NCBI GenBank assembly: GCA_964604555.1
Contig: CAZRZK010000011.1
Coordinates: 14,732 to 78,731, forward strand
Origin: an uncultured Pseudobdellovibrionaceae bacterium
GTDB taxonomy: Bacteria > Bdellovibrionota > FAC87 > UBA2466
Direction of reading: 5' to 3'
DNA length: 64,000 nt
The notes under the pieces were generated by a model. The model worked only from the letters and a program-made list of their open reading frames with translations. It ran no database searches and was not told where the DNA came from. The position numbers and the translations under genes are program-made. Positions 5,713-48,040 of this stretch are shown here, piece after piece (the first letter of the stretch is position 1; every line of letters starts with the position of its first letter).

Positions 5713-6546
5713 ATGACTAAATCGGTCCTCATCTTTGCAAAACATCGTAACGCTCCTTCCCAACAAACCAAATCGGAATTGAGCGCATGGTTGAAAAAAA
5801 AGAAGTATGCGATTGTCGATGTCAGTGACACGAAAGAAAAAATTTCGGCAGAAAAAGTAAAATCGGTGGTGCTGGGAGTCGTGATCGGAGGCGATGGAAC
5901 CTTTCTCACTTTAGTCCGACGGCTTGAGAAAAAGGAACACTTCCCCATTTTGGGAATCAACTTAGGAACTTTGGGATTTATCACCGATGTAAATCGAGAG
6001 CAGATGTTGGAAGCGGTGGATCTGGCTTTGAAAGGAAAATACATTGAGCAACGGCGCCCTCTTCTAAAGGTTGATGTCGTGAGAAAAAATAAAGTGGTGG
6101 AGTCGGGACTTGTTTTTAACGACGCAGTCATCACAAAAGATGCGACTACCTTGATGTTAAAATTTGAAGTCTTTTTGGGACAGGAGCTATTAAGCAATCA
6201 AAGAGCGGATGGCTACATTTGTGCTACTCCCACCGGCTCTACCGCCTATGCTCTTTCAGCTGGTGGTCCCATCCTTCACCCAGAAGTGGCGGGTATTGTT
6301 TTAGCACCTATTTGTTCCCACTCTCTATCAGCGCGTCCAACCGTAGTTCCACAGAACTCCGCGATTCGGATAGCAATTAAAGATCTTCATGGGGCGGTTT
6401 ACTTGGTTTATGACGGTCAAATCAGTTTCGAGATAGAGCCCTTTGATCAGATCCAAATCCAAACCTCGACCAATAGCTTGCGTTTAGTGCGCTCGCCCCA
6501 GCATTTGTGGAGTGAAACGGTACGCACCAAGTTAAAGATGGGATGA
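5713..6546 (+). CDS. nadK: NAD+ kinase
   Basis: Carries the GGDGT motif (VVLGVVIGGDGTFL), the NE/D short motif and the conserved C-terminal domain. Length is 277 aa. Confidence 0.85.
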   Translation: MTKSVLIFAKHRNAPSQQTKSELSAWLKKKKYAIVDVSDTKEKISAEKVKSVVLGVVIGGDGTFLTLVRRLEKKEHFPILGINLGTLGFITDVNREQMLEAVDLALKGKYIEQRRPLLKVDVVRKNKVVESGLVFNDAVITKDATTLMLKFEVFLGQELLSNQRADGYICATPTGSTAYALSAGGPILHPEVAGIVLAPICSHSLSARPTVVPQNSAIRIAIKDLHGAVYLVYDGQISFEIEPFDQIQIQTSTNSLRLVRSPQHLWSETVRTKLKMG

Positions 6547-12585: not shown

Positions 12586-14187
12586 ATGAAAACACGATGG
12601 ATGCTCCTCGCTTCGATAGTTTTATTGGTTGTCTCGGGTATTTCGGCCTATCTCTTCGGGTTTGTCCCCTGGATGTGGCAAGCTTCGCTCGGTTTAGGCG
12701 TGGCTCTTCTATTGGGATATCTTTTTACGCAACGGAGTTTTTATAAAGAATCGTTAGGGAAGAAAACGACCCAATATGGATTGAATTCAATTGTGATGGC
12801 AGTGCTCGCTACGGGCGTCTTTGCAATGATCAACACCATTGTTGCTCAGCACGATCTCAAGAAGGATTTTACAAAAAATAAACTCCATACCCTTTCTGAT
12901 CAGACGGTAAAGGTGCTTCAAGGCTTAAAGAGCGAAGTGGTGTTAAAAGCCTTTGTCGAGGTGAATCAGCTCCAGGCCTTCGATGCAGTGCTTTCGAAAT
13001 ACACCTACCTTTCCAAGCTGGTGAAACGGGAGTTTGTCGACGCCGATAAAGATCCAATGCTCGCCAAGCAATATAAAATAAAACAAGAGGGGGTCATCAT
13101 CGTTGAGAGCCAGAACCGCAGCTCTCGCATTGAAAATGTGTTTGGCCCGGATGATCCCAAGATCGAAGAGAAAATCACCAACGCCATCATCTCGGTTTCT
13201 AAAGGAGAGAAGAAAAAGGTCTATTTCATTACCGGCCATGGTGAAAAGCTAGTTTCTGACAACGGTCGTGAAGGCTTTTCCGATGTGAAAGAAGCCCTGG
13301 GAAGTTCTCTCTATCAAGTCGAAGAACTCCTCATCGTTGATAAGGAGAAAATCCCTGCCGATGCCGAAGTGGTTGTGCTCGCGGGGCCAAAATCGGATTT
13401 AATGGAGCATGAACTCAAGATGCTGGAGAGTTACGTGCTTGCGGGAGGAAAACTTTTTGTGATGGTGGAACCGAATGGGACTCCCAGCTTAAAAGGATTC
13501 CTCGCGAAGTTTGGTGCCGATTGGAAGGTAAAGAAAACTATCTTTGAAACCAATCGCCTTCAACAATTGGCCGGAGGCAATCCACTTACTCCCGTTGTGA
13601 CTACCTACACCCCCGGTCATCAGATCACCCAAGAGGCAAAACAGATGACGATCTTTGCGATTGCTACGCCAATCGAAAAGGCTGCCACCACTCCAAATGG
13701 ATATAAAGTGGAATCCCTCTTTTCGACCAGTCCTCGCAGCTTAGAAGTGGAGATGCAGGGGGATAAGGTAAAGGTAAATGAAAAGACCGATCGCAAAGGG
13801 CCCATCTCTTTAGCTCTCGCAATCTCTGGAAAGGCAATCGTTCCCGGAGCAAAACCGGAAGCCAAAACCCAAGATAAAGAAGACAAGAAACCAGGAGAAG
13901 AGGAAAAGAAAGAACAGGAATTTCGCCTCTTAGTCGTGGGCGACACCGACTTCGGAAGCAACAATCTACGTCGATTCGGCATGAACGCCGATCTGTTTCA
14001 GAATATGGTGAGCTGGCTGTCGAAGGATGAAGACTTGATCTCCATCCGTCCGAAACCAACCAATACCAGCGAGTGGGAGATCACCGAAGAGCGGTTCCGT
14101 ATCATCAACTTGGCGTCCATTTGGATTATGCCTCCGATGATGTTTATTGCGGGATTAGTGGTGTGGCTTACACGTCGTCGGAAATAA
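12586..14187 (+). CDS. gldG: GldG-like ABC transporter auxiliary component
   Basis: 533 aa with N- and C-terminal TM anchors and a large periplasmic domain, matching the GldG family architecture. It follows the gldA/gldF-like genes. Confidence 0.55.
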   Translation: MKTRWMLLASIVLLVVSGISAYLFGFVPWMWQASLGLGVALLLGYLFTQRSFYKESLGKKTTQYGLNSIVMAVLATGVFAMINTIVAQHDLKKDFTKNKLHTLSDQTVKVLQGLKSEVVLKAFVEVNQLQAFDAVLSKYTYLSKLVKREFVDADKDPMLAKQYKIKQEGVIIVESQNRSSRIENVFGPDDPKIEEKITNAIISVSKGEKKKVYFITGHGEKLVSDNGREGFSDVKEALGSSLYQVEELLIVDKEKIPADAEVVVLAGPKSDLMEHELKMLESYVLAGGKLFVMVEPNGTPSLKGFLAKFGADWKVKKTIFETNRLQQLAGGNPLTPVVTTYTPGHQITQEAKQMTIFAIATPIEKAATTPNGYKVESLFSTSPRSLEVEMQGDKVKVNEKTDRKGPISLALAISGKAIVPGAKPEAKTQDKEDKKPGEEEKKEQEFRLLVVGDTDFGSNNLRRFGMNADLFQNMVSWLSKDEDLISIRPKPTNTSEWEITEERFRIINLASIWIMPPMMFIAGLVVWLTRRRK

Positions 14188-14557
14188 CAGAATAGCGATC
14201 CTGTCCATAATCAGGCGAGAGCACAACCCATTCTTTTTCTGTAGTGGCTGGAAGAAACTTACCATTTGCCACAAAATAGACTGGCTTATTCAATGCGGTC
14301 CAAAATGCTCTAAGCGTTGCATAAGCAATCCGAAGACCCGTGTAACTACCCGGTCCAAGGGGAGCTACAAATCCATCGAGCTCTTCGAGTTTCAGCCCAC
14401 TTTGATTTAAGGCATTCTCAATTTCCGATAACAACAACTCCGAATGTTTCATTGCAGCTGGGTAATGGTGAACTTGTGCGGATGATGGGATCTCTAAGGA
14501 AGAAAGGATAGCAATCTTTCCTACCTGCTCAGTAAGATCTAGCCAGAGATAATGCAT
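14168..14557 (-). CDS. tsaB: TsaB/YeaZ-like protein (short; possibly truncated tRNA t6A biosynthesis partner)
   Basis: The LWLDLT...GKIAILS...LDGFVAPLGPGSYTGLRIAYATLRAF pattern matches the TsaB N-domain. The ORF is only 129 aa. Its 3' end overlaps gldG by 20 bp. Confidence 0.45.
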   Translation of the reverse strand: MHYLWLDLTEQVGKIAILSSLEIPSSAQVHHYPAAMKHSELLLSEIENALNQSGLKLEELDGFVAPLGPGSYTGLRIAYATLRAFWTALNKPVYFVANGKFLPATTEKEWVVLSPDYGQDRYSVISDDV

Positions 14558-14666
14558 CGGAGGGGTGTTCTAGCAAGATTCGAGGGGTTCGTCCACTTTC
14601 AAGGTAATCATGCTAATTGGCTGAGTGGAGAGGGAGCTCATCTGCTACCTATGCTAAAATAATTGA

Positions 14667-15200
14667 ATGAAATATTCGAAATGGCGGTATCAAATCTATT
14701 TAATAGGAGTGGTACTGGGTTTTTTGGTTCCATGTTATGGATCGCGTCAAATTATGGTGCCTATCGATCAGAACCTGGGGTTTCATGATCAAGCAGGTGA
14801 AAGAGTTGTCCTAACCTGTACCCTTACCAATCCCTCTTCATTATCACAGTCGATTAAGATCGAGTATTCAGAGGTTGCCGCATCAGAAACATATGCAGGC
14901 TCCTATCAGGGAACGAAAACGACAGCAGTTACTGGCGTCTCTCTGCCTGCAGCAACGGCCACCTCAATCGCACACTACAACTTTGGCTTTAACAAATCAG
15001 CACCAGGAACAACGGGAGGGGATGGATACAGCGCCTCACCCTATTTTTGGATCGCGGGAGCGCCCGCTCAATTATGGATTACGGTTAGTGAAGACGAGGG
15101 GTATGTAACGGGTTCATGTCGAAATTTCTGGCAAGGGTCTGGAACGGGGACTCCTTTCCTTCCCGCTTCCGTTTCCATGAATGGGGGACGTCCCTTCTAA
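14667..15200 (+). CDS. hypothetical secreted protein
   Basis: N-terminal TM/signal segment. The protein is G/S/T-rich with no recognisable domain. Confidence 0.35.
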   Translation: MKYSKWRYQIYLIGVVLGFLVPCYGSRQIMVPIDQNLGFHDQAGERVVLTCTLTNPSSLSQSIKIEYSEVAASETYAGSYQGTKTTAVTGVSLPAATATSIAHYNFGFNKSAPGTTGGDGYSASPYFWIAGAPAQLWITVSEDEGYVTGSCRNFWQGSGTGTPFLPASVSMNGGRPF

Positions 15201-15204
15201 ATGG

Positions 15205-15480
15205 CTCTACCTTGTAAAGGGAAAAACCTCTTATCGTGATCAGCGAAGGGACGGCGCAGTAACCTTAGGACCGACCGGGCGAGGGGGAGCCCGATCTGGG
15301 ATTCGATTCGGGGGGTGTCCGTCAATTAACGAGCGCCATACCCTTCACTAACCAAATTTTCTGTAATGCCAGCTGAAAGCCAGGGCTGCTATCTAGGGGT
15401 GTCTCACAGTCCTAGTTTAGCTCCATGCCCCAAAAGGCTGCAATAAACAGTCTGTATACACCCCTTCAAAATAAGGCTTA
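15205..15480. ncRNA. candidate structured non-coding RNA (unassigned; weak tmRNA-5'-domain-like motif)
   Basis: 276-bp GC-rich segment with no ORF in any frame. It contains GGGGGAGCCCGAUCUGGGAUUCGAUUCGGGGGG, which resembles the tmRNA 5' acceptor/D-analog region (GGGGCUGAUUCUGGAUUCGAC), and many short complementary segments. No CCA-terminal T-arm or tag ORF could be located by eye. Confidence 0.25.
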
Positions 15481-15481
15481 A

Positions 15482-15778
15482 TTGCTTAGGTTCATTGCAT
15501 TTTCCTCAATTTTGAATTTTTATGTCTGTCCAATGTTTGAGCAACATAAAGTCATTCTTAGCTTGAAGAACGAGGAGGTCGAGCTGACTGCATTCCATGG
15601 AGAGGTGTTACGCGAGTTGCTCATAAAGAGCGGTTATTCTCCCCACCGCGATCATTTTCTGCTACTCAACTGCCGTGGGAATGGAATCTGCGGTTCCTGC
15701 AAAGTGATGATTGATGGAAAAGAAGATCGTTCCTGCCAAGTGAAGTGTTACCGTGATTTGAAAATAAGAATCGATTGA
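15482..15778 (+). CDS. small Cys-rich ferredoxin-like protein (2Fe-2S-like CxxGxCGxC)
   Basis: The CRGNGICGSCKV motif plus two further Cys suggest a beta-grasp ferredoxin-like fold. The start is more likely the internal ATG at 15533 (MFEQHK...). Confidence 0.4.
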   Translation: MLRFIAFSSILNFYVCPMFEQHKVILSLKNEEVELTAFHGEVLRELLIKSGYSPHRDHFLLLNCRGNGICGSCKVMIDGKEDRSCQVKCYRDLKIRID

Positions 15779-15825: not shown

Positions 15826-16473
15826 ATGCGTTTCATTCAATTTTTTTCATTTTTTCTTTTAACTTCATTTTCATTTGCGAAAACTTCGAGTTCATCGTTA
15901 TCGCTACAGGATGATCTCTTTAAAGCTCAAAATAAAGGTTTGAGGGCAACTCAGGAACTCCGCAGCACTCAACTGCAATTGGATCGGGCGAAGTTTGTGT
16001 TGGAAATGGAAACCAATCTTTTTAATCATGGAGCAGGCTCATACTTTGGTTACTCCCAAGCCCTGGTGGAGTGGGTTCGGAAACTTTATGAAGTTGAAAG
16101 AGCCAATAATTGGAAAAAGGAAGCTGAGATAGAAGAGAAGGTCTATCGGATGCGGCTCGATTGGGAACAAGGTGTGAAAGAAGAAAATGTCCTGGAGCTG
16201 GGGCAACTTTACGTCAATTTAAGAAAAGAGCAGCTTCTTCTCATGAGGTCCTTGGCAGAGTCCACTAAGGTTCCCGTCGTTGAATTAAAAACCCAATGGG
16301 AGAAGATTGCCGAGCTGACTCATAATGGTTCTGCAAGCAAGAATGAATTGAGCATCGCTAAATTGAATTATGACGAAGCGATTGCCATCCAGAAAACGGC
16401 CGGTGAAGGAGTTATTTTGGCTGAAAAGCAGCTGGCCGAAGCGATTGCCGCGGTTGAAGGCGGAAAAAAGTAA
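15826..16473 (+). CDS. hypothetical secreted coiled-coil protein
   Basis: Signal peptide (MRFIQFFSFFLLTSFSFA), then a heptad-rich charged sequence. Confidence 0.4.
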   Translation: MRFIQFFSFFLLTSFSFAKTSSSSLSLQDDLFKAQNKGLRATQELRSTQLQLDRAKFVLEMETNLFNHGAGSYFGYSQALVEWVRKLYEVERANNWKKEAEIEEKVYRMRLDWEQGVKEENVLELGQLYVNLRKEQLLLMRSLAESTKVPVVELKTQWEKIAELTHNGSASKNELSIAKLNYDEAIAIQKTAGEGVILAEKQLAEAIAAVEGGKK

Positions 16474-16497: not shown

Positions 16498-17163
16498 ATG
16501 AAATCCTATTCCATCACACGTCAAGGGAAGCGCTCCGAAAATCAAGATTCCTATTTCTGTGATGATAAGAATGGAATCTACGCCGTTGCCGATGGGGTCG
16601 GCGGTGGCGAGCTCGGAGATGTCGCCTCTCAGCTGGCAATCCAACTTTTTTCGGAAGGGGCGTCTCAGGGGCAACCCTTTGTCGAGGTTTGGGCTAGGAT
16701 TCACGAAGCGGTGACGAAAGCTTCATTCGAAAGGTTTAATGAACCGGTAATGGGCACCACCCTCACCGGGATTTCGATCGAGGGGTCTCAGGTCAAGATT
16801 GGTCATATCGGCGATACGCGTCTCTATGTTTACCAAGAAGGCTTATTGCGTCAGTTGACGCACGATCAAGAATCCTATGATGAACGATCAGGGCATACCG
16901 TACTCATGTCATTTCTCGGAATGGACAGCCGCCACTTTCAGATTGAGATCGTCGAAGACAGCTTCATTTTAGAACCCAAAGATAAGCTTCTTCTGTGCAG
17001 CGACGGTCTTTCCAAGCAGCTCAGCGAGATTACCATGTCTGGAATTATTAAGAGCTATGAAGCGCAACCTCAGCAGTTGGTTGAAATGCTGGCAAATCGA
17101 GCCGAGATCCATGAGCAATCGGATAATGTGACGCTGATTTGGGTGGAGCCTTTTTCAATATAG
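16498..17163 (+). CDS. PP2C-family Ser/Thr phosphatase (second copy)
   Basis: ADGVGGGELGDVAS, GTTL, GDTR, CSDGL and DNVTLIWVE motifs. Confidence 0.75.
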   Translation: MKSYSITRQGKRSENQDSYFCDDKNGIYAVADGVGGGELGDVASQLAIQLFSEGASQGQPFVEVWARIHEAVTKASFERFNEPVMGTTLTGISIEGSQVKIGHIGDTRLYVYQEGLLRQLTHDQESYDERSGHTVLMSFLGMDSRHFQIEIVEDSFILEPKDKLLLCSDGLSKQLSEITMSGIIKSYEAQPQQLVEMLANRAEIHEQSDNVTLIWVEPFSI

Positions 17164-19678
17164 ACCTTACTCCATTTCCAATAATCTGCGCTGCCTGTTT
17201 TGCCTGCTCCGGAGTGTGTGTCGCCATGACTTGCAGGCGGAAGCGGCTTGCTCCTAAAGGGACCACCGGATATTCGATGATCATCGCCGCTAATTGAGCT
17301 TCAGTCATTGCACGGTGGCAGAGTCGCGCCTTCCGTTCTGAACCAATAAACACCGGAACGATAGGCCCCGGAGCTCCGAAGCAGAGTTGCCCCTCCTTCA
17401 TAAGTTCGGACCTTAACACCGTTACTGCAGCGTGAAGTTTTTCCCGTAGAAGCGCCCCTTTCGGAGATCGAATAATCTGGCAGGCCTTGAGGGCGATGGC
17501 CGTCTGAATGGGCGAAAGGGCGTTCGAAAAAAGATGAGCCGAGCTAAACATCTTCAGATAATGGATCAGAGCTTTACTATCGGTAGCGACAAATCCCCCA
17601 TTAGTGGCAAAGCTTTTGGAGAAGCTGCCCATCACAATGTCGATCTTTCCGTACATTCCTTGCACGCCCATTTGGCCTCTTCCTTCAGGACCTGTGGCCC
17701 CTAAGTCATGGGCGACATCGACAAAGAGGAAGGCATTATATTGATGGGCAATCTCCTGAAATTTTTTCAGGTCTGGAGAATCGGCATCCATTGAAAAAAG
17801 TCCTTCAGTAATCAGAAGGATCGCGTTTTTGGTATCCCGTTTGCGAATCGCCCGCAACATGGCTCGAGCAGCATCGGGATCGAGATGAGCGTAGCGGTGG
17901 ACCTTCCGGGTTGCCGCCCTGGCCCCTTGCTGGAGGCAAGCGTGGGTGAGCCGGTCCATCACTATGTGATCCTGGGGTTTTACGATACCAATAATCGATC
18001 CGAAGCCGGCGGCATAGCCTGTCGCAAATAGGAGCACATATTTCTTGCCGGTCAGGATTTTTAATTCTTCCTCCAGTTCATGGGTTAAGAGAGTGTTTCC
18101 GATAATCATCGGGGATCCCGCACTATGGGGACCAAACTTTGAAATTGACTCGATAGCTGCCTGGGCAATTTCGGGATCTTGTCCTAATCCCAGATAATCT
18201 TGGGAAGCGAAATTGATCCCCTCGATCTTTCTTCCCGAATTATCGCTGAGAAGGGTGGTGTTGGCCGCAATTCGATGGAGCGTGCGGGAGTATTGGAACA
18301 TTCCTTTCTGCTCTCGGCGTTGGTAGAAATCATAATAGGGCTGTGTTCGTTCAAAAAGGTCTGGCCCAAAATGTTGGGAGTAGTCGAAACAGTTCTGTTC
18401 AAGGGCAAGATCAGGTGGTTCAGTGCTAAATGGATTTTGATAAACGGAACTAGAGATCCCAATCGGTTCTAAAGGAGTGGTATCGATAAGTCTTTCGAGC
18501 CTCCGCGCTTCAAAAAATTCCCGCACCGGAACCACATCGAAATAGAGCCCGATAAAACGATTCCGCTCTTCAGAAGAGTTAGAAATCGCTCGATAGAGCC
18601 TTTTTTCATCCGGTCGGAGCGGATTCATCTCCGCTTGTTGAGTCGTGAATTCATAAAAACGGAAGAGGTCCACTGAACGACGGTCTTCGAAGTCTCTAAT
18701 GGCCTCTCCCTTCAATTTTTTTCCACCAAAGAAATTTTGCAGCTCTTCAGAAAGGAGGAAGGCATCTCGCAGTGCATGGGTCATTCCATTGGCCGTACAC
18801 TGATCTTTAAAGCAATGAGCATCACCGATGAGCGGTGCCTGTGGCGAGCTTTTTCGAATAAAGGGCTGCTGATCTACCGTCAACCGAAACGGTTCTACTC
18901 TGCAAGCAGAAGAGACCATCTTACGATGGAATTCAGGATCAATGATTTGGAGTGCTTTGAAGAAATGAAATTCCTTTTCCCTTTTAAAGTCCTCATAAAA
19001 AGAGTCGGGACCAAAGACCAGTACCATTGTGTTCCCATCATTGGTCGGAACAGCCGCAAAGCTCAGTCGATTTCTCTTTTTTAAGAGCGCATGCGGGAGT
19101 TCAAGCCCCTTGAAATAAGAATAGCAGGCAAAGGTGCAGTGGTGGCGTTCTTCCATCTTTGAAACTTGGAAGTGTTCCGCAACGGTGGAGTTTTTACCAT
19201 CGGCTCCGACACAAATCTCGGTTCCCTCTAGGAGTTCTTCGGTAAAAGGAGTTCCCAAGCGAAGCTCAGCCCCTGATTTTACCGCCTCTTCCTGGAGCAA
19301 TTTATCTAAAAAGGCACGGCGGATGCAGGTGTATCGGGGATCCAATTTAAAAATTTCATTCGGGTGAACTGTTTCAAAGCGTCGTTGGAGATCATTTTCA
19401 GAGAGCGAGCCACCCAGGGCAATTTCATCCACACTCACCTCAAAATGGTGGAAAGCAGGGGTTTCCTTTAATACCGCTTCCGCAATTCCCAGAGAATGGA
19501 GATAGGTGAGCCCACGCGCATTCATAAAGTGGGTTGAAAGCACATCGTGCGTCTCATTCATTTTATCGACAAGGAGAACTTTTAACCCCGCCCTGGCAAG
19601 TCGGATGGCGGTGGCCGATCCGGCAATTCTGGCCCCAATGATAGTAACATCATACTGTTTCATAAAACCCCTTCCCAT
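17048..19678 (-). CDS. fusion protein: N-terminal FAD-dependent oxidoreductase domain + C-terminal alpha-oxoamine synthase (AONS/SPT/KBL/CqsA family, PLP)
   Basis: The N-terminus has the GxGxxG dinucleotide fold (DVTIIGARIAGSATAIRLARAGLKVLLVDK). The C-terminal ~400 aa has the class II aminotransferase pattern with PLP lysine GSFSKSF, DVAHDLG and DYLGLG. About 120 aa of linker separate the two domains. Confidence 0.7.
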   Translation of the reverse strand: MGRGFMKQYDVTIIGARIAGSATAIRLARAGLKVLLVDKMNETHDVLSTHFMNARGLTYLHSLGIAEAVLKETPAFHHFEVSVDEIALGGSLSENDLQRRFETVHPNEIFKLDPRYTCIRRAFLDKLLQEEAVKSGAELRLGTPFTEELLEGTEICVGADGKNSTVAEHFQVSKMEERHHCTFACYSYFKGLELPHALLKKRNRLSFAAVPTNDGNTMVLVFGPDSFYEDFKREKEFHFFKALQIIDPEFHRKMVSSACRVEPFRLTVDQQPFIRKSSPQAPLIGDAHCFKDQCTANGMTHALRDAFLLSEELQNFFGGKKLKGEAIRDFEDRRSVDLFRFYEFTTQQAEMNPLRPDEKRLYRAISNSSEERNRFIGLYFDVVPVREFFEARRLERLIDTTPLEPIGISSSVYQNPFSTEPPDLALEQNCFDYSQHFGPDLFERTQPYYDFYQRREQKGMFQYSRTLHRIAANTTLLSDNSGRKIEGINFASQDYLGLGQDPEIAQAAIESISKFGPHSAGSPMIIGNTLLTHELEEELKILTGKKYVLLFATGYAAGFGSIIGIVKPQDHIVMDRLTHACLQQGARAATRKVHRYAHLDPDAARAMLRAIRKRDTKNAILLITEGLFSMDADSPDLKKFQEIAHQYNAFLFVDVAHDLGATGPEGRGQMGVQGMYGKIDIVMGSFSKSFATNGGFVATDSKALIHYLKMFSSAHLFSNALSPIQTAIALKACQIIRSPKGALLREKLHAAVTVLRSELMKEGQLCFGAPGPIVPVFIGSERKARLCHRAMTEAQLAAMIIEYPVVPLGASRFRLQVMATHTPEQAKQAAQIIGNGVRSILKKAPPKSASHYPIAHGSRLDLPAFQPTAEVALHSS

Positions 19679-19791: not shown

Positions 19792-19864
19792 ACCATCTAA
19801 TTACTCATTCATAGATGATGGAATTGGTTTCTAAAAGTCCTTTATGGTAAATGTTTGGTTAGCA

Positions 19865-20743
19865 ATGGAGACCAATCGTTTAAGACAGTTCAAAGTCCTT
19901 GTCGAAACGAAACACCTCCGTCGTGCGGCCGAACTGCTCTCCATTTCCCATGGAGGTCTTTATAAATCCTTAAAGCAATTGGAAGAGGAATTGGGTTTCC
20001 CTCTTTTCTTTTCTCAGGGGAAGCGAATTGAAATCACTCCGAAAGGGTTGGAGATCTATCGACAGATTCCAGCAATTTTATCGGCGGTGGATGGAATTTT
20101 TAAATCAAAATCGGAGATCAGCACCCACCAAACGCTTACGCTCGGGACTTTTGAAGTTTTTAGCACCCATCTTTTAGGGCCGCTCTTTAAACAGGATACG
20201 TGGCAGGAAATTCATTTGAGATTAGTAGAATTGGTCCCGGGAGAGTTGGAGTTAGCCATTAAATCGGGCGAGGTGGATCTGGGAATAACCTACCTTCCCA
20301 TTCCAACCCGTGGTGTGGAGTTTGATAAGGTGGCACATCTGCGTATGGGAGTTTATGGCCGGAAAGGGGCTTTTCAAAAGCAGTCCTCTGAGAAACTTCC
20401 GTTTGTGATCCCGATTCGTCCTTTAAAAGGAACTCCCACTGGAGTTCGAGGGCTTGATGGCTGGCCAGAACAGGAGGTTCCCCGGCAGGTGGTTTATGAA
20501 GTCACCCTGATGGAGTCGGCATTGGAGTTGGTTCGTCAGGGACGAGCAGTGGTCTATTTACCAGAGCCGGTAGCGCGCGAACATAATCTGAAAATCAGAG
20601 CCCCCTTTGAATTGGTTGAGATCCAAGCCTTTCCAAAGTTGCCAGTGGTAAAACGGGATATCTTTATTGTGAGGCTTGAGGGACGGCAGGAAGGTAAGAT
20701 AGAGAAGCAATTGGCCTCAGCTTTGCGAATACTTGTACGATAA
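19865..20743 (+). CDS. LysR-family transcriptional regulator
   Basis: N-terminal HTH (LRQFKVLVETKHLRRAAELLSISHGGLYKSLKQLEEELG) plus a substrate-binding domain. It is divergent from the FAD-AONS gene. The start is taken as the internal ATG at 19865. Confidence 0.8.
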   Translation: METNRLRQFKVLVETKHLRRAAELLSISHGGLYKSLKQLEEELGFPLFFSQGKRIEITPKGLEIYRQIPAILSAVDGIFKSKSEISTHQTLTLGTFEVFSTHLLGPLFKQDTWQEIHLRLVELVPGELELAIKSGEVDLGITYLPIPTRGVEFDKVAHLRMGVYGRKGAFQKQSSEKLPFVIPIRPLKGTPTGVRGLDGWPEQEVPRQVVYEVTLMESALELVRQGRAVVYLPEPVAREHNLKIRAPFELVEIQAFPKLPVVKRDIFIVRLEGRQEGKIEKQLASALRILVR

Positions 20744-26593: not shown

Positions 26594-27718
26594 ATGCATG
26601 CTTACCGTGGCCTGACACCGGGCCGATTTCTTTTGATTTACACTGCAAAAGATGTGGTGATGGGTTTTTTATTGGGGACCGGCATCTTCCTTTTTATTCT
26701 TTTAATGTTTCAGGCCATCCGTTTAAGTGAGTTTGTCGTGGTCCATCAAGTCGCTATTAAAGATGTGATGCGCCTTTCGGTCTATTTGCTCCTTTCATTT
26801 GTTCCCATTGCCGTTCCGATCTCTCTTCTTTTTTCGGTGCTCATGGGGATCTCACGTGCCAATACCGAAGGGGAACTCCTCGCATTTCAGGTGAATGGCA
26901 TCAGTCTCCAGCAGCTTTTTATTCCAGTGGGGCTTTTTTCGACCGTCGTAACCGCTCTTTGTCTCTATGCCGCCCTTTATAGTGTTCCCCGAGGGAATCG
27001 GCTTTTCGAATTGCTGATTACAAAATTGGGAAGCGAGCGGGTGATGGCAAACCTAAAGCCGGGTGTTTTCATGGAGGGGTTTTATGGATTGGTCCTCTTC
27101 GCCGAGCAGATTGTCCCGCTTAAAAATGAGATGAAGCAGGTTTTTATCTATGATCGTCGGGATGAGATGCGACCGCTTGCGATCACGGCCGAAGCGGGCG
27201 TTTTAAAAGCTCAACCGGACAAAGGGCTCCTCACTCTGCGCCTGACGAATGGAGCCATTCACGTCGAGAATTTTGATCCCAAAGGAGTGCAGCAGAAATT
27301 AAATTTTGAAGTTTATGACATTAATCTTGAGGTTGCGCGCCCGGGAGAGGGGTGGCGTTCTTATAGTCCGCCTTCCTATAACTTGACCCAATTGAATGAA
27401 CGGATCCGCGAAACCGAGTCGGACCAACCTCACCAACGCCAATTGAAAGTGGAGTTGCACCGGCGATTTTCGATGGCCTTTAGTTGCATCGTTTTTGGTG
27501 TCTTGGGATTTTTAATCGGATCCTTTAGCCAACGAGGAATTCGCAGCACCGCCATTCTTTTCTGCATTGCCGTGGGAGTGGTCTATTGGCTCGCCTTTTT
27601 GGCAGCCAATGCGATGGCCAGCTCTGGAGTTTTATTGCCATGGGTTGCAGTCTGGGCCCCTAACCTCTTCTTTCTGGCCATTTCGCTCTTTCTTTACTCA
27701 CGCCTGAAACGGAATTGA
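26594..27718 (+). CDS. LptF/LptG-family (YjgP/YjgQ) LPS export permease
   Basis: 374 aa in a 3TM-periplasmic domain-3TM layout typical of LptF/G. Confidence 0.6.
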   Translation: MHAYRGLTPGRFLLIYTAKDVVMGFLLGTGIFLFILLMFQAIRLSEFVVVHQVAIKDVMRLSVYLLLSFVPIAVPISLLFSVLMGISRANTEGELLAFQVNGISLQQLFIPVGLFSTVVTALCLYAALYSVPRGNRLFELLITKLGSERVMANLKPGVFMEGFYGLVLFAEQIVPLKNEMKQVFIYDRRDEMRPLAITAEAGVLKAQPDKGLLTLRLTNGAIHVENFDPKGVQQKLNFEVYDINLEVARPGEGWRSYSPPSYNLTQLNERIRETESDQPHQRQLKVELHRRFSMAFSCIVFGVLGFLIGSFSQRGIRSTAILFCIAVGVVYWLAFLAANAMASSGVLLPWVAVWAPNLFFLAISLFLYSRLKRN

Positions 27719-42173: not shown

Positions 42174-43472
42174 ATGAAACACGAACATGCCCATGAAATC
42201 AGGGTTAAAGAGGTTAAAAAGCTGTCCCCAATCCTTCGCCGGGTAGAGGTGGAGATCCCCGCTGAGGAGATTGAACACCATGAAAAGGATACCGAACGAC
42301 GGTATCAGCGGCAGGCCAAGGTGCCAGGTTTCCGTCCAGGAAAGGCGCCTCAAACGATTGTTCGGCAGCAGTACTTGGCCGATATCCAAAAAGAGGTTTT
42401 TGAGCATTTAGTGCGCTCGGCTCTTTGGGAAGCGCTTAAAAAAACCGAATTGAACCCGCTCAATCACCCTACGTTAGATATTAAACAAGGGGCTTATCCC
42501 ACTGGGAAAGAGATCCATTTCTCGATTGAATTTGAAATCCGGCCTGAGATCGAATTGAAGAGCTACAAAGGCATCAGCCTTATTAAAAAAGAGGTTACGA
42601 TCGAAGATGCAGAGGTGGATAAAGTTCTCGAATCGCTTCGTGAGCGTTCTGCCACGATGGAACCGGTAGAGATCGCTACACCTGAAAAAGGGCATTTTGC
42701 GAATGTGGAAATGGCCTTTGAAGTTTTGGAAGATGGCGGCTTGAAGCAGCCCATGCGCGCGACGATGATCGAAATTGAAGGGGAAGGGGTGCTGCCTGAG
42801 CTAAACACCCAGCTCAAGCAGATGAAGATCGATGAGCAAAAAACGTTTGAAACCGATTTTCCCGCCGACTATCCCTCTGAAGGATTGAAAGGAAAGAAGG
42901 TTCGGTTCGAGCTTAAGTTGTTGGGAATCAAGAAGCAGGTTCTTCCTGAGCTCGATGATGCCTTTGCCTCGTCGATGCGAGAAGGTTTTACTCTAGAGCA
43001 GTTGAAAACTGAGATTAAAGAAAATCTCACGCAGTCTAAGAAAAATGAAAAGCAAGAAGAGGATCGCCAAAAGATTGTAGACCATTTGATCAAGAACAAT
43101 CCTTTTGAAGTGCCTCAGTCGTTGGTAGAGAATCAGGTCAGCCGGTTTCTTTCCCGAGCGAATCAAAATCCGAAAGCGAAACCGATTACAATCGAACAGC
43201 TCTCTCCCGAACAGAAAAAGGATCTCACCAAGCGAGCCGAAGAAACGGTCCGTGGATCGATGTTGTTGAGTGAAGTGGCTCAGCAAGAAAAGATTGCGGT
43301 TGATGAAGCCCGTTTAGAGGCACGGATCGCCGAGATTGCCAAAGGGATGCAAAAGCCCGACAATGAAGTGCGATTGTTGCTTGAAGGCAAGGGAATGATG
43401 GATCAGTTAAAGGATGAGATCCTCACCGAGCAGACCTTCGACTACCTTTTGCAGTCCGCTGACTGGCAATAA
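42174..43472 (+). CDS. tig: trigger factor
   Basis: N-terminal ribosome-binding motif (GFRPGKAP), an FKBP-type PPIase domain and the C-terminal arm. Confidence 0.85.
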   Translation: MKHEHAHEIRVKEVKKLSPILRRVEVEIPAEEIEHHEKDTERRYQRQAKVPGFRPGKAPQTIVRQQYLADIQKEVFEHLVRSALWEALKKTELNPLNHPTLDIKQGAYPTGKEIHFSIEFEIRPEIELKSYKGISLIKKEVTIEDAEVDKVLESLRERSATMEPVEIATPEKGHFANVEMAFEVLEDGGLKQPMRATMIEIEGEGVLPELNTQLKQMKIDEQKTFETDFPADYPSEGLKGKKVRFELKLLGIKKQVLPELDDAFASSMREGFTLEQLKTEIKENLTQSKKNEKQEEDRQKIVDHLIKNNPFEVPQSLVENQVSRFLSRANQNPKAKPITIEQLSPEQKKDLTKRAEETVRGSMLLSEVAQQEKIAVDEARLEARIAEIAKGMQKPDNEVRLLLEGKGMMDQLKDEILTEQTFDYLLQSADWQ

Positions 43473-43579
43473 AAAGACATCGGGTGCTTTTTACTGTGAC
43501 TTAACGGGTCTTGTCACATCTATTGATATTAGGGTACAAGTATTAGAACATCTTGGTTTTTTTTCACAGAAGGAACCAC

Positions 43580-44245
43580 ATGATCAGACACCAAAATCCA
43601 CCAGGCAATTCCATCGCTAGCTCTAATCTCGATGTCAGTAATTACCTGGTTCCTATCGTAGTCGAGCAGACTCCTCGCGGAGAGCGGTCTTATGATATCT
43701 ATTCCCGCCTGCTCAAGGAACGAATTCTGTTTATCGGTTCCCAGATCGATGACCCTATAGCCAATTTAGTCATTGCCCAGCTCCTTTTCTTAGAATCGGA
43801 AGATCCTGAAGCCGACATCCATCTCTATATCAACTCGCCCGGGGGCAGTGTGTCAGCGGGAATGGGGATTTACGATATGATGCAGTATGTAAAACCCGAT
43901 ATATCTACCTATTGCACGGGCTTAGCAGCCAGCATGGGGGCGGTGTTATTGGCGGCAGGGGCCAAGGGAAAACGCTATGCGTTACCCAATTCTCAGATTA
44001 TGATCCATCAGCCTTTAGGGGGAGCTCAAGGTCAGGCAACTGATATTGCGATCCAGGCAAAACAGATTTTGCACTTAAAGGAAAAGTTAAACCTTATTTT
44101 GGTCCATCACACTGGACAGCCGATGGAGCAAATTGAGAAGGATACCGATCGCGATCGCTATATGTCCGCGGAAGATGCCAAGGAATATGGGATTGTTGAT
44201 AATGTCATTAAGCACCGAACCGTAGGAGCCAAAGGATCGAAATAA
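43580..44245 (+). CDS. clpP: ATP-dependent Clp protease proteolytic subunit
   Basis: Catalytic Ser motif GLAASMGA, plus His and Asp. The start was moved to the ATG at 43580 with an upstream RBS. Confidence 0.9.
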
Positions 44246-44258
44246 TAAGGAGGCATCG

Positions 44259-45548
44259 ATGAGCCGTAGAGAAAGCGATGGTTTTGGGAATCTAGTCTGT
44301 AGTTTTTGTGGGAAAAGCCAACGTGAAGTGAAAAAGCTCATCGCTGGGCCGACGGTCCACATTTGCGATGAGTGTATCGAGCTTTGCAATGACATCATTG
44401 CAGAAGAGGCTCAGAAGGAAGACGTTCGTGGCCCGGCCTCTAAGATTCCTAAACCTACCGAGATCAAAAGTGTTCTGGATGATTATGTGATTGGCCAAGA
44501 TCGGGCCAAGAAAACCCTTTCGGTGGCGGTCCACAATCATTACAAACGCATTTTCAGCGGTAAAACCACCGCAAGCCACGGGTCTGAAGTCGAAGTTCAG
44601 AAAAGCAACATTCTTTTGATTGGCCCCACCGGAAGTGGAAAAACATTGTTGGCGCAAACCTTAGCGCGTCTCTTAAAAGTTCCCTTTACGATTGTCGATG
44701 CAACGACCTTAACAGAAGCCGGTTATGTGGGGGAAGATGTTGAGAACATTATTCTCTATTTGCTTCAAGCAGCCGATTACGACATCGAAAAGACCCAGCG
44801 CGGGATCGTCTATATCGATGAAATCGATAAGATTGCGCGCAAAGGAGATAATCCCTCCATCACCCGTGACGTATCGGGTGAAGGGGTCCAACAGGCTCTC
44901 TTGAAAATTTTCGAAGGGACCCGTGCGAATGTTCCGCCCAAAGGCGGGAGGAAACACCCTCAGCAGGAATTTCTGCAGGTCGACACTTCCAACATCCTCT
45001 TTATTTGCGGGGGCGCCTTTGTGGGATTGGATCGGGTGATAGAACAGCGGACCCATAAGCGCGGAATGGGGATCGGCGCAGAGGTGAAATCGACCAAGGA
45101 GAAGGCAAAAGATCCCGCACTCCATCAAGTGCAGCAGGAAGATCTTTTAAGATTTGGAATGATCCCAGAGTTTATTGGTCGTTTGCCGGTGGTGGCGACT
45201 CTCGATGAGTTGAATGAAGCCGCTTTGGTCAGGATTCTTACCGAACCGAAGAATGCCATCATCAAGCAATACCAAAAACTTTTTGAATATGAGAATGTGA
45301 AGCTTAAATTCGACGATCATTCCCTTCACACCATCGCCAAAGAAGCACTTAAAACCAAAACAGGCGCTCGGGGCTTACGTTCCATTTTGGAACATGCCAT
45401 GTTGGATATTATGTATGACCTACCTTCAATTCCCAATTTGAAGGAGTGCATCATTACCGAAGAGGTCATTACGCAAAACGCCAGACCCCAATTAGTGACT
45501 GGTCCTGCGGAAGAATCGGATCTGGCGAAAAAAGCAGAATCGGCATAA
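44259..45548 (+). CDS. clpX: ATP-dependent Clp protease ATP-binding subunit ClpX
   Basis: Zinc-binding CSFCGK...CDEC, Walker A GPTGSGKT and an AAA+ lid domain. Confidence 0.9.
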
Positions 45549-45616
45549 TGCATATTAAGGTATAATAGATATTAAGAAGTGGTAGTTTTCTCTTTTCCCC
45601 ATGGAGGTAACTTCCA

Positions 45617-48040
45617 ATGCAAAAAAAGGCAGAACCGATCACTACCTATTCGCTTTTACCTCTCAGGGACATTATCGTCTTCCCTCACATGGTGGTTCCG
45701 CTTTTTGTGGGGCGCGAAAAGTCTATCCGAGCGCTCGAGGAGGCGATGACTGGCAAGAAGCAGATCGTCTTATCGGCCCAAAAAAAGGCGCAAAACAATA
45801 ACCCCGATGACAAAGATATTTTCACGATTGGAACCATCGCCAACATCATCCAGCTTTTGAGACTCCCCGATGGAACCCTCAAAGTTTTGGTCGAAGGAGC
45901 TCAGCGAGCCCGCATTTTAAAATACATCGAGCGGGATCAAACCTTCCGGGTGGAAGCAGAGCCACTTCCTGAAAAACTGGCTTCCGTGGTGGAAGCAGAG
46001 GCCTTCTTAAGAAGCGTTAAAAACGCCTTTGAAGCCTATGTAAAATTAAACAAACGGATACCCGCTGAACTTTTGATGTCGGTACTAGCCATCGAAGAGC
46101 CTGGAAAATTGGCCGATACCATTATCCCTCATCTCAATATTAAGGTTGAAGAGAAGCAGAATCTCTTAGAAATGCTCGATGCAGGCGAGCGGTTAGAAAG
46201 ACTATATGGTTTGATCGAAGGGGAGATCGAGATCCTCCAGGTCGAGAAGAAAATCCGCCATCGAGTAAAGAAGCAGATGGAACGCTCGCAGAAGGAGTAT
46301 TACCTCAACGAGCAGATGCAGGCGATCCAGAAGGAGTTGGGCGAACGGGATGAATTTAAGAATGAAATTGCTGAAATCGAAAAGGCGATCAAGCGATGCC
46401 ATATGCCGGAAGAGGCCAATGCCAAGGCAAGGACCGAACTAAAAAAACTAAAGATGATGTCCCCGATGTCGGCTGAGGCAACGGTTGTCAGAAATTATTT
46501 GGATTGGATGATCTCTCTTCCGTGGAGCCAAAAGACCGATGACAAGATAGATCTTAAAAACACGCTCAATGTTTTAGATACTGATCATTTTGGTTTAACC
46601 ACCGTCAAGGAGCGTATCTTAGAGCACTTGGCGGTGCAGGGATTAGTAGAAAAAATACAAGGTCCCATCCTTTGTTTGGTAGGCCCACCAGGTGTTGGAA
46701 AAACCTCCTTGGCTCGATCCATTGCGAAATCGATGGGAAGAAAGTTTGTAAAGATCTCTTTGGGTGGAGTCAGGGATGAAGCTGAAATTCGGGGTCATCG
46801 CCGCACCTATATCGGCGCACTTCCCGGGAAGCTGATCCAGTCGATGAAGAAGGCGGAGACGGTCAATCCAGTCATTTTGCTGGATGAGATCGACAAGATG
46901 AGCACCGATTTCCGCGGAGATCCTTCCAGTGCCCTCTTAGAGGTTTTGGATCCCGAGCAGAATAAGTATTTTTCCGATCATTATCTCGAAGTAGAATATG
47001 ATCTTTCCAATGTGATGTTTGTGACAACCGCTAATTCACAGCACACTATTCCATGGGCCCTTTTGGATCGTCTCGAGGTGATCTCCCTCTCCGGTTATAC
47101 CGAAGAGGAAAAGCTGGAGATCTCAAAACAACACTTGATCCCAAAACTACTGAGTCGCCATGGACTGAAAGAAAATCAGGTTACTTTCAAGCCGCCCGCA
47201 GTGATGGATCTCATTCGCCATTACACTAAAGAAGCCGGGGTAAGAAATTTAGAGCGCGAAATCGCCGCCGTTTGCCGAAAACTCGCGCGGCAAACGCTTG
47301 AGAACCCGGGAAAGAAGAAAAATTTCGTGGTCGTTCCAAAAATGGTTGAGGAACTTTTAGGGCCACAAAAGTATCGCTACCAAAAAGCGGAACGCAGTCC
47401 CGAGATTGGCCTTTGTAATGGGCTGGCCTATACCGAAACAGGTGGGGATCTTTTACAGATCGAAGTGGTTCAGATGCCCGGTAAAGGAAAGTTCCAGGTC
47501 ACCGGAAAACTGGGCGAGGTGATGCAGGAGTCGGCCCAAGCAGCGATGAGCTATGTTCGCTCTCGCGCCAAGTTATTAGGGCTCGATCCTGAATTCTATC
47601 AAAAACTCGATATCCACGTGCACGTTCCAGAAGGGGCTATTCCCAAAGATGGCCCTTCGGCAGGTATTACCATGGCCACCGCCCTAGTGAGTGCGCTCAC
47701 TTCAAAGCCAATCAAGAGTACTGTTGCCATGACGGGTGAAATTACATTACGAGGAACGGTCCTGCCTATTGGGGGGCTCAAAGAAAAAATGTTGGCCGCC
47801 TATCGGGGGGGGATCAAAACGGTCATTATTCCCATCGATAATGAAAAGGACCTCAAAGATATTCCCAAAAATATCTTGAAGGAATTTGAAGTCATCAAGG
47901 TGAGCCACGCCGATCAGGTTTTAAGAGCAGCAATCGATGCTCCCGAGGTTTTTGTGACAAAGGGGGTGCCGCCAGAACCGGTAATAGCTCCCGTAGATGT
48001 CGTAAAGAAAGAAGAACCGATTCTTCCTGCGACTCATTAA
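45617..48040 (+). CDS. lon: Lon protease
   Basis: LON N-terminal domain, Walker [10 protein letters not shown], and the catalytic Ser-Lys protease domain ([15 protein letters not shown]). Confidence 0.9.

Follow-up and report, generated by a model that had tools for sequence, protein, structure and literature searches.

A conserved structured RNA on the minus strand upstream of tsaB represents a new RNA family in Bdellovibrionota

The 64,000-nt stretch of DNA analysed here (the window) contains a gap between the stop codon of an ORF at 14667–15200 and a small ferredoxin-like ORF that is likely to start at the ATG at 15530. A structured non-coding RNA with a tmRNA-like 5' domain had been proposed for this gap. 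Does the gap contain an RNA at all and, if so, on which strand, of which kind and in association with which gene? The motif quoted in the original prediction, GGGGGAGCCCGATCTGGGATTCGATTCGGGGGG, was confirmed on the plus strand at 15283–15315. The statement that the interval has no ORF in any frame was correct for ORFs of at least 60 aa, but two shorter ones overlap it:

15181–15351, plus strand: ATG ORF of 56 aa, no Pfam match
15197–15325, minus strand: TTG ORF of 42 aa, no Pfam match

A coding explanation was rejected, as neither of these ORFs matched Pfam and no conserved reading frame was seen by eye in the RNA described below (the copy in one relative, L001, holds an ATG frame of only three codons). 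The interval had also been called markedly GC-richer than its surroundings. This applies to its first half (0.57 in 15175–15399) but not to 15400–15549 (0.37–0.45); the GC content of the whole window is 0.47, and further stretches elsewhere in it reach 0.55–0.60. Its supposed abundance of complementary runs depended on the strand. In comparisons with shuffled sequences, the fold of the plus strand gave z +0.68 for 281 nt and z −0.10 for the 125-nt core, whereas the minus strand gave z −3.79 (0/200 shuffles) and its core, folding at −54.9 kcal/mol, z −4.40 (0/200).

The motif had been read as the 5' domain of a tmRNA (ssrA), possibly a permuted, divergent or degenerate one. A tmRNA is a molecule of about 300–400 nt, in which a tag reading frame ending in a stop codon is flanked by pseudoknots, and which has a T-arm and a 3' CCA end. 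The plus strand does show a loose likeness to the tmRNA 5' end (GGGG..CUGA..UGGAUUC..GGG, judged against the E. coli sequence), but this is limited to a stretch of 20–30 nt. ARAGORN found no tRNA and no tmRNA gene in the entire window, and the Rfam tmRNA models (standard, alpha, cyano and beta) gave no match even at E ≤ 10. No Rfam 15 family reached its gathering threshold in the window or in 15 related loci, and at E ≤ 10 neither positions 15000–15700 nor the copy of one relative matched a tmRNA, 6S, RNase P or riboswitch model. At this relaxed threshold the window segment gave two chance matches only (a viroid motif and an lncRNA fragment), and this segment and the relative's copy together gave only chance-level hairpin matches, microRNA and snoRNA models included. 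Moreover, function resides on the other strand, and what is conserved there is a hairpin of approximately 100 nt that lacks a tRNA-like domain, T-arm, CCA end and tag reading frame. Thus, since ARAGORN and Rfam 15 were negative and the motif lies on the strand that is not transcribed, the tmRNA reading is refuted as far as sequence analysis reaches, and we give it next to no chance of being correct.

Relatives of the locus were gathered through the gldG-like protein encoded at 12586–14187, which has hundreds of homologues; the nearest is 66% identical when the identical sequence of the source genome is set aside. An alignment-based genome scan with this protein yielded 80 loci, and those with more than 44% identity were labelled Bdellovibrionaceae or Pseudobdellovibrionaceae, or bore older or generic names ('Deltaproteobacteria', 'Proteobacteria' or 'bacterium'). 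Three window proteins had no exact-sequence record, the Fer2-like protein had no word-sharing homologue, and scanning genomes for the 876-aa fusion protein alone gave no match. In two relatives (L001 and L002), the gene order was ABC–ABC2–GldG on the plus strand, TsaB on the minus strand, a gap, and then Fer2 and PP2C on the plus strand. At low stringency, the window gap and the TsaB–Fer2 gap of the relatives were seen to share a block of about 95 nt, and an HMM made from three seed sequences found this block once in each of 33 loci, always in the same orientation. The structured RNA to which the block belongs has the following parts in the window:

15237–15354, minus strand: structured small RNA of about 120 nt, core hairpin P1–P4 (R1 covariance-model match 15236–15344; fold −54.9 kcal/mol)
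15333–15354, minus strand: 5' arm of P1, with U15340 bulged
15237–15257, minus strand: 3' arm of P1 (family consensus CUGCCGCCCC)
15317–15320, minus strand: 5' arm of P3, GGAC, pairing with GUCC at 15268–15271
15297–15316, minus strand: one-sided bulge on the 5' side, ACCCCCCGAAUCGAAUCCCA in the window
15273–15296, minus strand: P4 hairpin with an 8-bp stem (15296–15289 with 15280–15273)
15288–15281, minus strand: P4 loop, UCCCCCUC in the window copy
15283–15315, plus strand: the 'tmRNA-like' motif, i.e. the reverse complement of the bulge, the 5' arm of P4 and part of the P4 loop

The 5' arm of P1 reads GGGGCGGCAG in the family. The window instead has GGG-U-AUGGCGC, with the 3' arm changed to match, and its P1 is extended out to 15354, beyond the covariance-model match. 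P2 varies among copies. The bulge measures 20–24 nt in the family and has the consensus A(A)ACCCCCGAAACCGGAAUCC, in which the C-run and GAA are invariant; the window bulge carries ACCCCCCGAAUCGAAUCC, which lacks two nucleotides of the consensus CGAAACCGGAAUCC. P4 has a stem of 7–10 bp and a 9-nt loop, nnACCCCUC, in which ACCCCUC is invariant. The only invariant columns of the alignment are the C-runs, the GAA and one G of P1. Except for the 5' arm of P1, no conserved G-rich partner for the C-runs was seen inside the RNA. In the relatives a U-tract follows right after P1, with 4–8 U within 10 nt in most of them. The window P1 is followed first by CGAUAAGAGG, with UUUUUCCCUUU coming approximately 13 nt further on; since the directly adjoining U-tract is missing, the 3' end of the window copy is undefined.

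Fourteen relatives, but not the window, served to build the covariance model, R1. It recovered every copy at 34–115 bits and matched the window copy over its full length (model positions 1–113) with 35.9 bits and an E-value of ~1e-5 to 2e-5. P1, P3 and P4 of the window copy were in register with the model, its minimum free energy fold showed the same helices, and it has both the C-run and GAA in the 5' bulge and the CCCCUC in the apical loop. An HMM based on sequence alone, from which the window row had been left out, matched 15328–15247 (E 2.8e-6). A DNA-pattern scan of metagenomes that was blind to gene context added 17 loci, all 17 of which were confirmed by R1, and one further copy was found on a contig of 2.98 Mb (L083). 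The RNA was present once in every examined Bdellovibrionota locus that holds tsaB. Loci L035–L082 have neither the RNA nor tsaB and, because tsaB is missing there, the absence of the RNA from these loci is uninformative on its spread outside Bdellovibrionota. A repeat or mobile element was rejected, as neither blastn nor the family HMM found a second copy in the window, and a plasmid or phage origin was rejected on the basis of the absence of plasmid matches by blastn and of copies in viral contigs by pattern scan.

The helices were then judged by covariation. Among 47 sequences, in an alignment that was fitted to R1 and thus somewhat in the model's favour, 95.5% of the cells were paired and compensatory changes occurred in 18 of the 22 pairs; sliding the partners by 1–3 columns as a control left 35–51% paired, with 1–8 compensatory pairs. 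An alignment of 34 sequences, fitted in the same way, gave the same picture, and in an independent MAFFT/RNAalifold run P1 and P4 were already covarying. Compensatory changes were present in eight of the nine P1 pairs, helix 3 was 92.6–93.5% paired, and helix 4 was 99.6–99.7% paired, with all seven of its pairs covarying. The region between P1 and P3 is poorly alignable; pairing there was still better than in shuffles (mean z −0.96, 44 sequences). The alignment contained 70 G·U/U·G cells versus 7 A·C/C·A cells, and 95.1% of the cells were paired when read as the minus strand versus 86.4% when read as the plus strand. The minus strand is settled by this large excess of G·U over A·C, as well as by the downstream U-tract and the promoter, which both lie on it. 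With conservation and covariation found in 50 related loci, the proposal that the gap holds a structured non-coding RNA received strong support, and we consider it almost certain that a real, conserved, structured RNA is encoded on the minus strand. The family is new and well supported: it is absent from Rfam 15 and conserved in predatory Bdellovibrionota directly upstream of tsaB. No description of such an RNA was found in published full text.

Could the conservation reflect DNA-level signals only, i.e. a terminator, a UP-like T-tract, the tsaB promoter or a protein-binding palindrome, with no function at the RNA level? The T-tract and the 3' arm of P1 do overlap the putative tsaB promoter in loci with a short spacer. 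However, in a DNA palindrome A·C and G·T should be tolerated equally often, contrary to the above counts, and the helices covary so that pairing is kept. Promoter and terminator signals would, in addition, leave the invariant unpaired bulge of 20 nt and the invariant loop unexplained. This explanation is therefore highly improbable.

On the strand of the RNA, most loci show TGTATAC-N4-TGTATATTG(C/A), followed after 17–18 nt by (GCG)TTATACT or TATAAT. The conserved promoter can be summarised as a −35 element TTGC and a −10 element TATACT, preceded by the direct repeat TGTATAC-N4-TGTATA. In the window the corresponding features are:

15414–15419, minus strand: −10 hexamer TAAACT ((GCG)TTATACT or TATAAT in the relatives)
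15438–15443, minus strand: −35 hexamer TTGCAG, 18 nt upstream of the −10 hexamer
15440–15460, minus strand: direct repeat TGTATAC-AGAC-TGTTTATTGC, abutting and overlapping the −35 hexamer
15355–15407, minus strand: predicted 5' leader, from the predicted start site to P1; not conserved

The window copy thus has TTGCAG-N18-TAAACT behind the direct-repeat box. The box consensus is TGTATACnnnnTGTATATTGC, and the window sequence, TGTATACAGACTGTTTATTGC, differs from it by one mismatch; this is the only match to the box in the 64 kb (at one mismatch, 0.05 matches were expected by chance). In 17 loci, the exact box occurred exactly once per locus, always upstream of the RNA and on the same strand. 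Because there is one box per locus and a single one in the window, the box is specific to the RNA gene. It is probably a transcription-factor site, and the spacing of its two TGTATA repeats by one helical turn would fit a site of the response-regulator type. The start site was placed according to the position of the −10 element, and the length of the leader varies, since in the relatives 5–184 nt separate the −10 element from P1. The interval is then fully accounted for by minus-strand elements, namely the RNA (15237–15354), the leader (~15355–15407) and the promoter (15414–15460). The second half of the interval consists of promoter and leader and contains no structured RNA.

The original prediction placed the RNA between a secreted hypothetical gene and the small ferredoxin-like ORF. 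The comparison with the relatives pointed, instead of to this plus-strand ORF, to a gene on the minus strand:

14168–14557, minus strand: tsaB (YeaZ-like, Pfam TsaD family), 129 aa; PF00814 at 53 bits, tblastn match to the TsaB of relatives

In 33 of 33 genome loci, as well as in L083 and all 16 assessable metagenome loci, tsaB directly follows the RNA on the same strand, and the adjacency is kept where the gldG-like or Fer2-like neighbours differ or are absent. The distance from the end of P1 to the start codon of tsaB is 24–87 nt in the relatives. The only exception is the window, where tsaB lies approximately 680 nt downstream of the RNA with a gene between them. The intervening ORF, at 14667–15200, runs in the opposite direction; it is a probable gene, with homologues that are weak but real. 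Although detached from tsaB, the window copy has kept the box, the promoter and both C-rich motifs, and its P1 and P4 are fully paired, with lineage-specific compensatory changes. When the sequence downstream of the window RNA was compared with the RNA–tsaB spacers of the relatives, the scores (20–23 in 48 comparisons, versus a shuffle maximum of 22) were not significant. Upstream of the window tsaB, positions 14594–14577 resembled the RNA of one relative (Smith–Waterman score 31 versus a shuffle maximum of 23) and were not recovered by the family HMM; that this stretch is a decayed second copy is unproven.

We also inspected 44 distinct regions upstream of the tsaB start codon. No Shine–Dalgarno sequence was seen in them by eye. 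A −10-like motif, GnTAA, was concentrated 5–14 nt before the start codon, with 21/44 and 16/44 regions in the two bins concerned versus 1–7/44 elsewhere; the two bins together hold 37/44, compared with an expectation of about 10/44 per 10 nt. Elements resembling a −35 box, TTGA(C/T)C or TTGCCG, were located approximately 15–17 nt upstream of the GnTAA motif. A canonical sigma-70 −10 element was tried and rejected, since a strict TAnnnT scan gave no enrichment (5/44) and only the looser GnTAA was enriched. It appears that tsaB has a promoter of its own placed hard against the start codon; we treat this promoter as putative, because GnTAA is not the canonical TAnnnT and the strict scan was flat. 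The same promoter-against-ATG layout occurs elsewhere in the window (TATAAT-N7-ATG at 26594 and CATAAT-N8-ATG at 5713).

These findings bear on whether the RNA is a cis-acting transcription attenuator of tsaB, i.e. a riboswitch or a leader responding to a protein or an RNA, sharing its promoter with the gene. P1 and the U-tract would then form a conditional terminator, controlled by a signal coming, for example, from the t6A pathway: either P1 forms, or the GGGGG of its 5' arm is captured by a conserved C-run and transcription reads through into tsaB. The constant position of the RNA, 24–87 nt upstream of tsaB and on its strand in all assessable relatives whatever the other neighbours, agrees with such a role, as do the U-tract directly behind P1 and the absence of any other obvious long region upstream of tsaB. 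The GGGGG of P1 could also, as read from the sequence, pair alternatively with the CCCCC of the bulge or the CCCC of the loop; covariation cannot support this pairing because the bases involved are invariant. On the other hand, the −10-like motif stands at a fixed short distance from tsaB, with the −35-like element downstream of the terminator or overlapping it, and the start codon in a read-through transcript would have no Shine–Dalgarno sequence. A second, canonical terminator hairpin lies between the RNA and tsaB in L083, and the window RNA and its promoter are intact even though some 680 nt and a gene of opposite orientation separate them from tsaB. Furthermore, no known riboswitch class matches. 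On balance we judge an attenuator to be unlikely, while taking it seriously as the chief competing explanation. In a narrower form of this explanation, the RNA would found a riboswitch or attenuator class that serves tsaB alone and senses a t6A-pathway signal through the choice between the P1 terminator and GGGGG–C-run pairing. This form has only a slim chance of being right; candidate signals would include threonylcarbamoyl-AMP, another pathway metabolite, the TsaBDE complex or unmodified tRNA. Literature searches turned up no case in which t6A synthesis is controlled by an RNA.

We favour a stand-alone small RNA over a tsaB leader. The T-tract stays directly after P1 at every tsaB spacing from 24 to 87 nt and, since the T-tract thus tracks P1, L083 has its extra terminator, tsaB has its −10-like motif and the window copy is detached from the gene, the RNA and tsaB are better regarded as separate units. 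The fallback offered in the original prediction, a riboswitch or cis-regulatory leader, was thus close in spirit, but a leader fits the data less well than a stand-alone small RNA. Adjacency to, and co-orientation with, a single gene family is the classic signature of a cis-acting leader and speaks against a stand-alone RNA. A terminator built from a long-range closing helix rather than from a compact hairpin is unusual and likewise speaks against it, as does the missing U-tract of the window copy.

How might a stand-alone RNA of this kind work? A sigma-70-type promoter (−35 at 15443–15438, −10 at 15419–15414) would drive a minus-strand transcript, the conserved part of which (~15354–15237) is predicted to fold into one long irregular hairpin, P1–P2–P3–P4. 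This fold would hold two blocks single-stranded, the 20-nt bulge (ACCCCCGAA...GAAUCC) and the apical loop (CCCCUC), which are the most conserved positions of the family. In the relatives, the U-tract right behind P1 would give the transcript a defined 3' end, so that a discrete RNA would be made separately from tsaB. Both exposed C-rich motifs would act in trans, most likely, by analogy with known small RNAs, by pairing with G-rich, Shine–Dalgarno-like sites in target mRNAs. Action through the exposed motifs is favoured because the two C-runs and GAA are the sole invariant columns. A search by eye of a few start regions of flanking genes did not reveal a conserved G-rich target. We hold the reading as a trans-acting, base-pairing small RNA tentatively, and put its chance at somewhat less than even.

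The same conserved bulge and loop could instead be a protein-recognition surface, in which case the RNA would be a stand-alone protein-binding or sequestering RNA (a small ribonucleoprotein or a sponge) and its linkage to tsaB simply inherited gene order. A near-invariant single-stranded block of about 20 nt and an invariant loop, carried on a rigid covarying scaffold, are what one would expect of such an RNA, and it occurs as one copy per locus, and one in the 64-kb window, behind a strong, near-consensus promoter. The variable 5' leader could be processed off, as happens in stable RNAs. However, the conserved neighbourhood yields no candidate partner protein, the repeated motifs typical of sponge RNAs are absent, and there is no likeness to SRP, 6S or RNase P RNA. 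We regard protein binding as rather improbable and retain the base-pairing small RNA as the preferred reading.

To our knowledge, very few regulatory RNAs have been described in Bdellovibrio-type predators. In a 2013 transcriptome study (PMC3627812), eight attack-phase sRNAs, one of them with a c-di-GMP riboswitch, are called the first report of ncRNAs in Bdellovibrio. According to the same study, APsRNA3 and APsRNA4 of B. bacteriovorus adjoin the flagellin gene Bd0604, which is a different locus (PMC3627812), and on these grounds identity of the RNA with APsRNA3 or APsRNA4 was ruled out. An RNA acting in trans would probably be a core regulator of the lineage, and the direct-repeat box would then suggest a transcription factor dedicated to it. 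A tsaB leader would, as far as is known, be the first example of the universal t6A tRNA-modification pathway being controlled at the RNA level. Either way, the RNA is ready for RNA family databases and offers a concrete target in culturable Bdellovibrio.

Among known systems, the 6S RNA gene (ssrS) of gamma-proteobacteria, which is fixed upstream of ygfA, is an example of a gene for a stable trans-acting RNA whose protein-coding neighbour, though unrelated, is constant throughout a large clade. Like 6S RNA, the RNA described here forms a long, irregular hairpin behind a 5' leader that varies, and it is located directly upstream of one gene and co-oriented with it. 6S RNA is approximately 180 nt long, and its central bubble is two-sided and mimics an open promoter, whereas the present RNA is about 100 nt long, has a one-sided bulge and does not match the Rfam 6S models. 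With terminator-type riboswitches and attenuators it shares the position immediately upstream of a co-oriented gene in all assessable relatives, a helix and U-tract before that gene, and a conserved internal loop that could be a binding pocket. It differs from them in that tsaB apparently has its own promoter against the start codon, that the copy in the window is detached from tsaB and yet intact, and that no known class is matched; a separate expression platform, as found in riboswitches, is likewise absent, since the terminator-like stem is the same helix that closes the whole fold.

The third comparison is with RsaE/RoxS of Firmicutes, small RNAs with C-rich seeds that pair with G-rich, Shine–Dalgarno-like mRNA sites. 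There is no homology in sequence or structure at the Rfam gathering threshold or at E ≤ 10, the phylum is a different one, and a single long hairpin here carries the C-runs, one in its large one-sided bulge and the other in its 9-nt loop. In its overall design, however, the RNA is similar to RsaE/RoxS: it is approximately 100 nt long, with a predicted promoter of its own, an upstream regulator-type site and a predicted 3' end made of a helix and a U-tract, and it combines two short, strictly conserved unpaired C-runs with a covarying scaffold and conservation throughout the lineage.

A direct repeat abuts the -35 element of the minus-strand promoter from which the RNA is predicted to be transcribed, and the same repeat occurs in the two relatives with conserved gene order (L001 and L002) and in 15 other loci.
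Window 15440-15460, minus strand: direct repeat TGTATAC-N4-TGTATATTG(C/A), abutting the -35
L001 8572-8591 and L002 8435-8454: same direct repeat
There is one copy per locus, and a single copy in the 64-kb window. In several loci the first half of the repeat lies within a palindrome, CTGTATACAG, and in the loci that contain a divergent Fer2-like (ferredoxin-like) gene the repeat also lies 50-100 nt upstream of that gene. The repeat looks like a putative site for a dedicated transcription factor.

Some members of the RNA family carry an extra hairpin on the 5' side, between helices P1 and P2.
L004 6340-6472; L026 8033-8161; L028 7729-7859; L096 387-525: RNAs with the extra P1-P2 hairpin
The hairpin of L004 serves as an example (GAAGGUUCUUCGGAACCUUC); in L026 and L028 the alignment to the covariance model of the family (R1) begins only at P2. 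Insertions of variable length are typical of functional structured RNAs.

The t6A tRNA-modification protein TsaB is shorter in the window (129 aa) than in the relatives (177-225 aa), and it lacks the part that corresponds to residues ~99-176 of L001 TsaB. An ORF that is absent from the syntenic gap of the relatives sits between the tsaB gene and the RNA.
14168-14557, minus strand: TsaB, 129 aa
14577-14605, minus strand: ACCTTGAAAGTGGACGAACCCCTCGAA, immediately upstream of the tsaB ATG
14667-15200, plus strand: signal-peptide-like ORF, 177 aa
Homologues of the intervening ORF are weak (8 matches; best non-self E 3e-8), and its entry in the protein collection is a 148-aa product whose first residue is residue 30 of the ORF. 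The sequence ACCTTGAAAGTGGACGAACCCCTCGAA, which is followed close to the tsaB ATG by ACACCCCTC, is similar to the P2-P3-bulge portion of the L019 RNA (local alignment score 31; maximum of 23 for shuffles), and could by this similarity be what is left of a second RNA copy that has decayed at the ancestral position. The likeness may also be due to chance, since the family HMM of the RNA did not recover the 14577-14605 site.

Other genes of the window include a ferredoxin-like gene, a fusion ORF and a housekeeping cluster.
15530-15778, plus strand: 2Fe-2S ferredoxin-like protein, 83 aa, CxxxxCxxC...C
15826-16473, plus strand: ORF of 215 aa between Fer2 and PP2C_2
17048-19678, minus strand: fusion ORF of 876 aa, N-terminal FAD-binding (FAD_binding_3/DAO) and C-terminal class I/II aminotransferase
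42174-48040, plus strand: tig-clpP-clpX-lon, Pfam-confirmed
In many relatives the ferredoxin-like protein (35-55% identity) is kept beside a PP2C_2 phosphatase; a large protein search gave no word-sharing homologue of it. The 215-aa ORF, whose ribosome-binding site (GGGGAGGGG) is unusually rich in G, is missing from the relatives and has no Pfam match. The fusion ORF and a LysR gene (19844-20743) are divergently oriented; L002 has two separate genes on the other strand instead, one for a DAO protein of 379 aa and one for an aminotransferase of 384 aa, and a single-protein scan of representative genomes revealed no close relative of the fusion. The tig-clpP-clpX-lon genes are a standard housekeeping cluster with no relation to the RNA.

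Only about one-third of the long ORFs in the window have a strong Shine-Dalgarno sequence, and several genes show a consensus-like -10 element 7-8 nt before the start codon without one.
26594: GGTATAAT-CCCAAAC-ATG, -10 against the start codon, no Shine-Dalgarno
5713: ATCATAAT-GTTTCGCT-ATG, -10 against the start codon, no Shine-Dalgarno
Leaderless mRNAs may be common in this organism. We surveyed the spacer of 24-87 nt that separates the RNA from tsaB in the related loci L001-L034 and L083-L100, where inspection by eye revealed no Shine-Dalgarno sequence before the tsaB start codons. A GnTAA motif was found instead 5-14 nt before them, with TTGA(C/T)C ~15-17 nt further upstream, and in the short-spacer loci TTGCCG, which resembles a -35, lies within the P1 3' arm. 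Together, these features suggest that the tsaB mRNA is leaderless or nearly so and that its predicted promoter overlaps the terminator of the RNA. The GnTAA motif often reads CCGATAA, which resembles CCGATA, the FliA/sigma-28 -10 element reported for B. bacteriovorus (PMC3627812).
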